NCBI RefSeq assembly: GCF_003334385.1
Contig: NZ_QOWN01000138.1
Length of the DNA stretch: 985 nt
Source: Escherichia coli
Lineage (GTDB): Bacteria > Pseudomonadota > Gammaproteobacteria > Enterobacterales > Enterobacteriaceae
Direction: 5' to 3' (one strand)
The notes beneath the pieces are model-generated. The model was not told the DNA's origin, searched no databases, and saw only the letters and a program-made list of their open reading frames with translations. Numbering within the stretch: the stretch's first letter is position 1; every line of letters begins with the position of its first letter. The translations under genes and the position numbers were made by a program. Shown here piece by piece: positions 1-985 of this stretch.

Positions 1-985
1 GCTGATTGCCGCCAGTGTTCTCCTTGTGTGGATGTTCAGCGCCTTCCATTTCCTCCGGATCATCTTCCTGAACTTCAACCTGATACTCTTCATCGAATGT
101 TTCTTGGTATGTTGCGTCGCCCATCACCGCGCCACAATCAGGGCAGTTGCCGCCGCCGGTCTGACCGCAGGCGGTGCAGGCTTTTTCCACTTCCTGTTGC
201 GCCACTGGTTCAGGCTGTTTCGTTTCTGGCTCGTTTTGTAACGCATTTGGACTGTTTTGTTCCGCTTTTTGGTAGTTCCGTTCCGATTCATGCTGGTTCT
301 GGTTCACAGAATCGCGGGTCTGGATCCCCTTAACCCATTTCGGATCATTCGGGTCACTAATCCCTTCAACAAATTCACCACGTGATGCAGCAAGCAACTT
401 ATCGGCGTCAGGCTGGCTGATATTGGCTGCCTGCATAATTTTGTTTACTTCGTCAGCGGTAACTTTTATCGGCTCTGGTTGTTCTGAATCTTCAGCGGTA
501 TCTACATTTTGCGGTAAGCCCGTGTATGTGCCATTTTTTCGGGCAAAATATTCTTCTTTTGTGATTTCAGTGGCGCCAGCAGCCAGTGCCTTATCCAGAC
601 CAGAAAGTTTGTTTGCGCGACCGTATTTTTCTCCGTCCTTATCTGCGAAGAGGAAATAGAACGGCCCCTCACGCTCTACAGATGGTTCAGCTTCCGGCGC
701 GGTTTCATTTTTTGGGATATCAGATACCTCAGTTTCTACTGCATCAGTTTGTGTTTCTGATGACTGGAGAACATCAACAGTGCCCAGGTCTGTTTCTTCA
801 TTCTCAAACACGCCCTTTGTCGTCAGGTATTCGCAGATATATTTGTTCAGTGCTACGGGATCTTTGTGAATGTCGATCGGACGCTCACGGACAAGGCCAA
901 AAATAGTTTGGCGGTCGTAGCGAAGGGCATCAGGCTGTTTGCGCATTGATGCCGAGATACGCTTCCAGTCTTCGCGGTCGTTGTC
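1..985 (-). CDS. recE: Internal fragment, partial at both ends, of a RecE-like exodeoxyribonuclease VIII family protein (Rac-type prophage recombination exonuclease); non-catalytic central region. Codons run from 985 down to 2.
   Basis: Seen in sequence: reverse-complement frame starting at 985 is open for all 328 codons; translation has protein-like composition with acidic linker segments and a CxxC...CxxC motif. From memory, not a search: the stretches [29 protein letters not shown], ACxACGQTGGxNCPDCGAVMGDATYQETFDEE and DPEEMEGAEHPH closely match the central region of E. coli K-12 Rac prophage RecE, which lies just upstream of its C-terminal nuclease domain. The start codon must lie beyond position 985 and the stop beyond position 1. 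Confidence 0.8.
2..121 (-). other. Acidic low-complexity tract (GDATYQETFDEEYQVEVQEDDPEEMEGAEHPHKENTGGNQ), probably a disordered linker before the downstream domain
   Basis: Seen in sequence: about 14 D/E and one K in 40 residues, with no hydrophobic core pattern. This corresponds to the segment that, as I recall, immediately precedes the RecE catalytic domain. Confidence 0.5.
134..178 (-). other. Four-cysteine CxxC-x7-CxxC motif (CTACGQTGGGNCPDC), candidate zinc-ribbon or zinc-knuckle
   Basis: Seen in sequence: residues 270, 273, 281 and 284 of the window translation are Cys (tgc at 176-178 and tgt at 134-136 on the reverse strand bracket the motif), with a Gly-rich intervening loop. The spacing fits small Cys4 zinc-binding knuckles. 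Metal binding is inferred, not shown. Confidence 0.5.

Follow-up and report, generated by a model that had tools for sequence, protein, structure and literature searches.

A probable interdomain linker, charge-conserved and predicted disordered, in a ydfE-type prophage exonuclease of Escherichia coli

The DNA analysed here, referred to as the window, is a stretch of 985 nucleotides (nt) from Escherichia coli contig NZ_QOWN01000138.1 (assembly GCF_003334385.1) that lies inside one protein-coding gene. A single frame on the minus strand (frame 0, 328 codons) contains no stop codon and extends past both window ends, and the mechanically listed open reading frames (ORFs) are therefore irrelevant. 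Its translation is identical to amino acids (aa) 282-609 of WP_000048369.1, with 99.9% identity at the DNA level. WP_000048369.1 is the product of an 823-aa coding sequence (CDS) annotated as 'exonuclease' in E. coli E2865 (locus L001:4158-6629). The element of interest is an acidic tract at nt 662-808, which encodes residues 60-108 of the window translation (FENEETDLGTVDVLQSSETQTDAVETEVSDIPKNETAPEAEPSVEREGP, 49 residues) and corresponds to aa 341-389 of the full protein; an earlier note had reported this position and sequence, and both are exact in the translation. We interpret the core of the tract, aa ~343-384, as an intrinsically disordered interdomain linker with conserved charge and free sequence, and put the probability of this reading at about 75%.

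Matches to the window are found in 4,734 of 5,426 complete E. coli genomes, with at least 80% of the window covered in 3,603 of them, and also in lambdoid phages such as HannyBb, PhiR42_1, Tritos and the PPompW/Stx2a phages. An origin of the signal on the other strand or at the level of RNA or DNA, for example through an antisense gene, a structured RNA or a repeat, is extremely improbable. A plus-strand ORF of 106 codons (nt 586-906) does overlap the tract, but this frame is interrupted by four to five stops in five other alleles. We reject it as an unconserved by-product of a sense strand rich in GAA, GAG and ACN codons. Rfam gave nothing above noise (best E 0.81, at a different place), and the tract is not built on tandem or dispersed DNA repeats; the repeat scan of the window returned one short direct repeat in two copies and a single weak inverted repeat, both outside the tract. 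The sense frame, open over all 985 nt, matches the annotated CDS.

The earlier note had taken the gene for a recE allele. This assignment is justified for the central scaffold, where BLASTP aligns aa 262-627 with residues 278-592 of K-12 RecE at 40% identity (E 3e-62). It fails for the protein as a whole. The NCBIfam RecE equivalog NF007259 gives 281.3 bits against a cut-off of 1269, with the match confined to aa 246-623 and to profile positions 271-600 of 877, whereas K-12 RecE itself reaches 1830 bits. A C-terminal PD-(D/E)XK domain of the RecE kind is absent and a DEDDh domain stands in its place: PF16473 (Rv2179c-like 3'-5' exonuclease, DEDDh) is the sole Pfam family found (aa 642-813, E 5e-67), and the nearest solved structures by sequence and fold, T4 DexA and RNase T, are both DEDDh enzymes. 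Matching is end to end with PHROG 2082 'exonuclease' (aa 1-822 against profile positions 1-822 of 823, 1828 bits), while PHROG 607 and 412 give partial matches. In six intact loci (L001, L003, L005-L008) the gene order is dicB, ydfD, the gene itself, an excisionase or DUF4224 gene and the integrase gene. No recT was found downstream in these six loci, in contrast to the recE-recT pair of K-12 Rac. Score, domain content and gene context together lead us to reject the recE identity.

The closest K-12 counterpart is the Qin pseudogene ydfE (b1577, L009:5079-5843), which comprises the first 255 codons of the gene, identical at 254 of 255 positions (99%), in the same dicB-ydfD-gene-xis-int context, and is truncated by IS2E. 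The truncation lies upstream of the region covered by the window, so that K-12 Qin lacks the linker altogether. As judged from sequence and gene context, the gene is the intact form of ydfE and combines a RecE-like scaffold with a DEDDh 3'-5' exonuclease domain. A literature search on ydfE returned no functional study of the intact protein. The locus is often decayed: a seventh allele (L004:853-3129) is an IS600-truncated pseudogene, several database proteins (P0098, P0104, P0105, P0111) are frameshifted versions of the gene, and in E2865 the xisR gene is split by the IS66-family element ISCro1 (L001:6702-9660). Entries for N-terminal fragments such as P0015 and P0024 assign two recent Pfam families, PF27430 and PF27432, to the first ~200 aa of the protein; going by the fragment boundaries, both lie N-terminal to the window.

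The full-length protein was modelled with AlphaFold2 from an alignment of 58 sequences, with a mean predicted local distance difference test score (pLDDT) of 66. Between two confidently folded flanks, the model loses all structure over aa 344-384: pLDDT is below 50, there is no secondary structure, and DSSP assigns coil. The mean values of consecutive 10-residue blocks over aa 341-380 are 46, 27, 25 and 31, as compared to 89-91 on the N-terminal and 85-92 on the C-terminal side. The confident parts of the model are aa 1-205, aa 247-340 (block means 84-91) and aa 390-432 (85-92), the last of which folds as a ββαβα mini-domain. The helical domain preceding the linker contains helices 270-281, 286-296, 306-314 and 324-338. 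It ends in the last of these, at the conserved sequence ...LNKYI[CT]EYLTTKGVFE, and aligns to K-12 RecE aa ~278-350. Further towards the C-terminus, aa 438-460 and most of aa 499-637 likewise show pLDDT below 50 without secondary structure, and the exonuclease domain (aa 641-823) is modelled unevenly, with block means of 52-89. FoldIndex and TOP-IDP agree with the model, with -0.33 and 0.29 for the tract as compared to +0.05 and 0.05 for the mini-domain. A sequence search of the PDB matched only the exonuclease domain, and no solved structure spans the linker.

The boundaries seen in the predicted structure recur in the evolution of the gene. Among six full-length alleles, those of the intact loci named above, the ratio of non-synonymous to synonymous substitution rates (dN/dS) is 0.06 in the N-terminal flank (aa 282-340), rises to 0.64 in the tract (aa 341-389) and falls to 0.04 in the mini-domain (aa 390-438). 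The same alternation continues downstream, with 0.76 in a second linker (aa 439-475), 0.05 around a four-cysteine motif (aa 549-575) and 0.52 in a third acidic tract (aa 576-640). In the linker core (aa 343-380), comparison of the window allele with the others gives about 31 non-synonymous to 10 synonymous changes, while the folded flanks give 4:16 to 10:33 (Fisher p 6.5e-5 to 1.7e-6). Polymorphism affects 26 of 38 columns in the core and only 4 of 61 and 6 of 58 in the flanks.

Despite this rapid exchange of residues, bulk properties are kept. Between the two main allele types 24 of the 38 core residues are different, yet the core carries a net charge of -7 to -10 in both. In a simulation that ignores heterogeneity between sites, random substitution at equal nucleotide divergence would leave a net charge of about -1 to -2.5 (p 0.001-0.07). 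We extended the comparison to 44 distinct E. coli and E. albertii variants, drawn from 90%-identity clusters after exclusion of one frameshifted copy. All have 45-46 aa and a net charge of -8 to -13 between two anchor motifs, G[VK][FYM]E and GPFY. In the comparison of linkers across alleles that the earlier note had proposed, length and net charge thus persist.

In composition, the tract is highly acidic with almost no basic residues, as previously noted. It contains 15 aspartate or glutamate residues (D/E, 30.6%) and two lysine or arginine residues (K/R) among 49, giving a net charge of -13, with one aromatic residue and an isoelectric point (pI) of ~4.05. The net charge per residue is -0.27 at a D/E fraction of 0.31, and the longest D/E run is two residues. 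At least 15 D/E in 49 residues is rare (p=1.5e-4) against an approximate E. coli proteome background. The description of the tract as Glu/Thr/Pro-rich low-complexity sequence applies in part. Relative to the remainder of the protein, Glu (11/49, p=0.006) is the only residue with a clear enrichment; Thr is marginal (6/49, p=0.053), and neither Pro (4/49, p=0.25) nor Asp (p=0.59) is enriched. A compositional bias therefore exists, though a partial one. Low complexity is not supported, as the minimum 12-residue entropy in the tract is 2.52 bits and the SEG trigger, in our own implementation of the trigger step only, requires 2.2 bits or less in 12-residue windows. The sole SEG trigger of the 823-aa protein lies in the other acidic tract, at aa 579-590 (DEEYQVEVQEDD).

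Whether this composition amounts to a discrete feature has to be judged against the protein itself, which is acidic throughout (154 D/E, 89 K/R, net -65, pI 4.6). When the protein sequence is shuffled, the most negative 49-aa window carries -13.0 +/- 1.8, and 58% of shuffles contain one as negative as the tract because the whole protein is acidic. The joint criterion of at least 15 D/E, at most two K/R and at most one aromatic residue is reached in 7% of shuffles. We thus reject the charge cluster as a statistical anomaly, and composition by itself does not set the tract apart within the protein. The statement in the earlier note that two acidic tracts give the protein its strong negative charge is roughly correct: of a net charge of -35 in the window translation, -13 comes from the tract and another -13 from the one at nt 2-121 (14 D/E, 1 K/R), yet the remainder is acidic as well. 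From the frequency in shuffles and the absence of a SEG signal, one could argue that there is no feature at all beyond a chance compositional fluctuation in an acidic protein. We consider this very unlikely, since the drop in pLDDT, the jump in non-synonymous change and the non-alignable acidic segment of distant homologues share boundaries, and the charge is kept beyond what drift would be expected to leave.

These distant homologues were collected from 1.84 billion representatives at 50% identity. The search yielded 247 relatives, of which the longer ones were aligned (19-59% identity to the query); named sources are Klebsiella aerogenes and Enterobacter. In all of this diversity the helical domain ends in a conserved ...YI..L...G and is followed by an acidic segment rich in T, S, P and Q. 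The segment at the linker position spans 10-82 aa, and its net charge is -1 to -18 in every sequence that covers it except for a truncated representative of 398 aa with net 0. Length thus ranges widely among distant homologues and is fixed at 45-46 aa among the close variants. The segments cannot be aligned except for a weak [AST]VE[PT] element, which also occurs in K-12 RecE and could be partly an alignment artefact, and for the C-terminal end [LV]E..P.V-ER.GPFY. This end leads into the mini-domain, whose sequence ER.GPFY...G...GRANK...L...L..G..EI..EE..ARK.G is strongly conserved, with 12 of its positions invariant across 16 sequences. The final ~9 residues of the tract (EPSVEREGP) hence belong to the mini-domain and not to the linker. 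A conserved structured region, which would speak against a flexible linker, is accordingly rejected for aa 343-384 and accepted for these last residues only; the homologue alignments deny it for most of the tract, and beyond the C-terminal edge they show only a small conserved island, TDAVET.

Within this island, D162, A163, V164, E165 and T166 are invariant in the 16-sequence alignment, and the element is nearly conserved in the 44 variants, in which the half-segments on either side of it vary. Distant homologues and RecE show a comparable V/M-E-P/T element at the aligned position. TDAVET, or more generally [AST]VE[PT], could serve as a short linear motif on a disordered acidic arm, through which a host or phage protein would be recruited. 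We regard this as rather improbable. In a region of biased composition six residues may line up by chance, MAFFT tends to stack E, T and V, and TDAVET fits no known motif class and has no known partner. Linker haplotypes also recombine at TDAVET, with some variants joining the N-terminal half of one allele type to the C-terminal half of another (proteins P0106, P0113, P0115), and conservation among close alleles may merely reflect recombination that joins haplotypes at this site.

Beyond the mini-domain, homologues diverge in their modules. In homologues from K. aerogenes, Enterobacter and metagenomes, at least three other C-terminal modules are found fused behind the scaffold, linker and mini-domain: PHROG 607/412 (RecE type), PHROG 2489/7838 and PHROG 26058 nucleases (proteins P0126, P0128, P0130, P0133, P0134, P0196, P0223). 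K-12 RecE carries the acidic segment and lacks the mini-domain.

The segment thus shows three traits of a disordered linker: there is no predicted structure between folded flanks, order-promoting residues are depleted, and evolution is faster while bulk properties are kept. The suggestion of a flexible linker in the earlier note is borne out by low pLDDT, negative FoldIndex, elevated non-synonymous change and a composition conserved without conservation of sequence. We infer that the segment acts as a mechanical tether. It would connect the N-terminal helical scaffold (aa ~1-340), the homologue of the RecE N-terminus, to the ββαβα module (aa 386-432), after which further flexible acidic linkers, a motif shared with RecE and the four-cysteine motif would lead to the DEDDh 3'-5' exonuclease domain. 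The host protein would be a modular exonuclease of lambdoid (Qin-type) prophages. Selection appears to act on negative charge, few hydrophobic and aromatic residues and approximate length rather than on residue order, and the result would be a flexible, expanded and soluble tether that lets the modules move independently and avoids sticking to DNA. Linkers of this kind may also serve as permissive joints for module shuffling in the RecE-scaffold family.

Several observations weigh against the interpretation as a disordered linker. The charge cluster alone is unexceptional in so acidic a protein, given its frequency in shuffles. Disorder is predicted, and low pLDDT can also stem from a shallow alignment. 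The synonymous rate (dS) is uneven along the gene, with 0.69 in the mini-domain, 0.54 around the four-cysteine motif and 0.06-0.34 elsewhere (overall range 0.06-0.69), which indicates a mosaic history with old, strongly constrained segments. Given this heterogeneity, the regional dN/dS ratios obtained from six alleles are rough. Finally, linker length is almost fixed at 45-46 aa among the close variants and TDAVET is invariant. A pure entropic spacer requires neither, and some specific constraint on the linker may therefore exist.

Table 1. Features in the 985-nt window; amino acid positions refer to the 823-aa protein unless stated otherwise.
Feature	Position (nt)	Strand	Properties
C-terminal part of helical domain, aa 282-340 (domain aa ~247-340)	809..985	-	pLDDT 89-91; dN/dS 0.06; 4/61 polymorphic columns
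Acidic Glu-rich tract, aa 341-389 (window aa 60-108)	662..808	-	15 D/E, 2 K/R, net -13
Hypervariable charge-conserved linker core, aa 343-380	689..802	-	low pLDDT; 26/38 polymorphic columns
AlphaFold2-disordered span, aa 344-384	677..799	-	pLDDT <50
TDAVET island, aa 361-366	731..748	-	conserved inside linker
ββαβα mini-domain, aa 386-432	533..673	-	N-terminal edge is EPSVEREGP, the end of the tract
Second variable acidic/polar linker, aa 438-460	449..517	-	pLDDT <50; dN/dS 0.76 (aa 439-475)
RecE-shared motif, aa 477-506	311..400	-	BLASTP to RecE aa 466-485 onward; family consensus LAxxRGxxxxGISDPxDPKW
Four-cysteine motif CTACGQTGGGNCPDCG, aa 551-566	131..178	-	same spacing in RecE; dN/dS 0.05; pLDDT <50
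Third acidic tract, aa 571-609 in window, on to ~aa 637	2..118	-	net -16 window; SEG trigger; pLDDT <50; dN/dS 0.52

Downstream of the mini-domain, the window contains further elements of the scaffold (Table 1). The RecE-shared motif is the most widely conserved element of the RecE-scaffold family and is modelled as a low-confidence helix. The four-cysteine motif is under strong purifying selection and yet falls below pLDDT 50 in the AlphaFold2 model; from its sequence it may be zinc-ribbon-like. The third acidic tract is the more extreme of the acidic tracts, as it contains the most negative 49-aa window of the protein. It is common to RecE and lies directly upstream of the nuclease domain.

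Among known systems, one of the closest is RecE (exodeoxyribonuclease VIII) of the K-12 Rac prophage (866 aa); a 2023 review (PMC11611040) describes the function of its N-terminal region as unknown. Both genes reside in early-left operons of lambdoid prophages, and the two proteins share the central region, with near-identity from the RecE-shared motif through the four-cysteine motif and the acidic tract that follows. RecE also has its own acidic segment, predicted unfolded, at the corresponding place (aa ~350-425, net -13), although the two linkers cannot be aligned beyond a few residues. RecE differs in its PD-(D/E)XK nuclease, in its recT partner and in the absence of a ββαβα mini-domain after the linker. 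Zheng et al. (2025, Genome Res, PMC12315714) report lambdoid genes for DnaQ-type nucleases that lie outside a recognisable Rec module and usually very near int. These agree with the ydfE-type gene in position and nuclease type and may be of the same family; neither a multi-domain architecture nor acidic linkers are described in the part of that paper drawn on here.

Acidic disordered segments attached to nucleic acid-binding proteins are known from intrinsically disordered regions (IDRs) with D/E repeats (PMC10250230) and from the acidic C-terminal domain of Hfq (PMC5606850). Like the linker, for which disorder is predicted here, they are acidic, disordered and conserved in charge, and these IDRs, together with HMGB1-type proteins, provide precedents for autoinhibition of nucleic acid binding. 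By analogy, the linker could act as a disordered DNA mimic in an electrostatic autoregulation, in which it transiently covers a basic nucleic acid-binding surface and tunes DNA binding; the exonuclease domain, the mini-domain, the K/R-rich aa 186-227 or a partner protein have to be considered as targets. As a nuclease, the protein has to bind nucleic acid; the negative charge of the linker is kept against mutational erosion, and an acidic segment is present at the linker position in nearly every family member. The precedents, in contrast, in which autoinhibition has been demonstrated, are tails at a terminus or dense runs of D/E, while the linker is internal and of moderate charge density. With -0.27 charges per residue, no D/E run longer than two, no predicted fold and no target surface identified, we judge autoregulation to be unlikely. 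The related suggestion of the earlier note, a DNA-mimicking, protein-interaction surface, gains no positive evidence from our analysis: neither a rigid fold that presents carboxylates at DNA-like spacing, as in the DNA mimics of the Ocr, ArdA and DMP12 type, nor the dense consecutive D/E runs of autoinhibitory IDRs were found in the tract.

We conclude that the acidic linker is a real but ordinary feature of a prophage protein that is abundant but uncharacterised. Disordered acidic linkers occur commonly and the gene is present in most sequenced E. coli genomes, and the finding therefore carries little weight alone. What it adds is a corrected gene identity, that of an apparently intact ydfE-type DEDDh exonuclease built on a RecE-like scaffold, and a domain map that runs from scaffold, linker, ββαβα mini-domain and second linker through the RecE-shared and four-cysteine motifs to a further linker and the exonuclease. 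This map marks cut points for constructs in structural or biochemical studies, and its linkers coincide with the joints at which nuclease modules are swapped. Beyond that, there is a small chance that the acidic linkers, including [AST]VE[PT]/TDAVET, are regulatory and gate nuclease access electrostatically or dock a partner. If true, this would help to explain why the N-terminal part of RecE-like proteins is kept across interchangeable nuclease modules.

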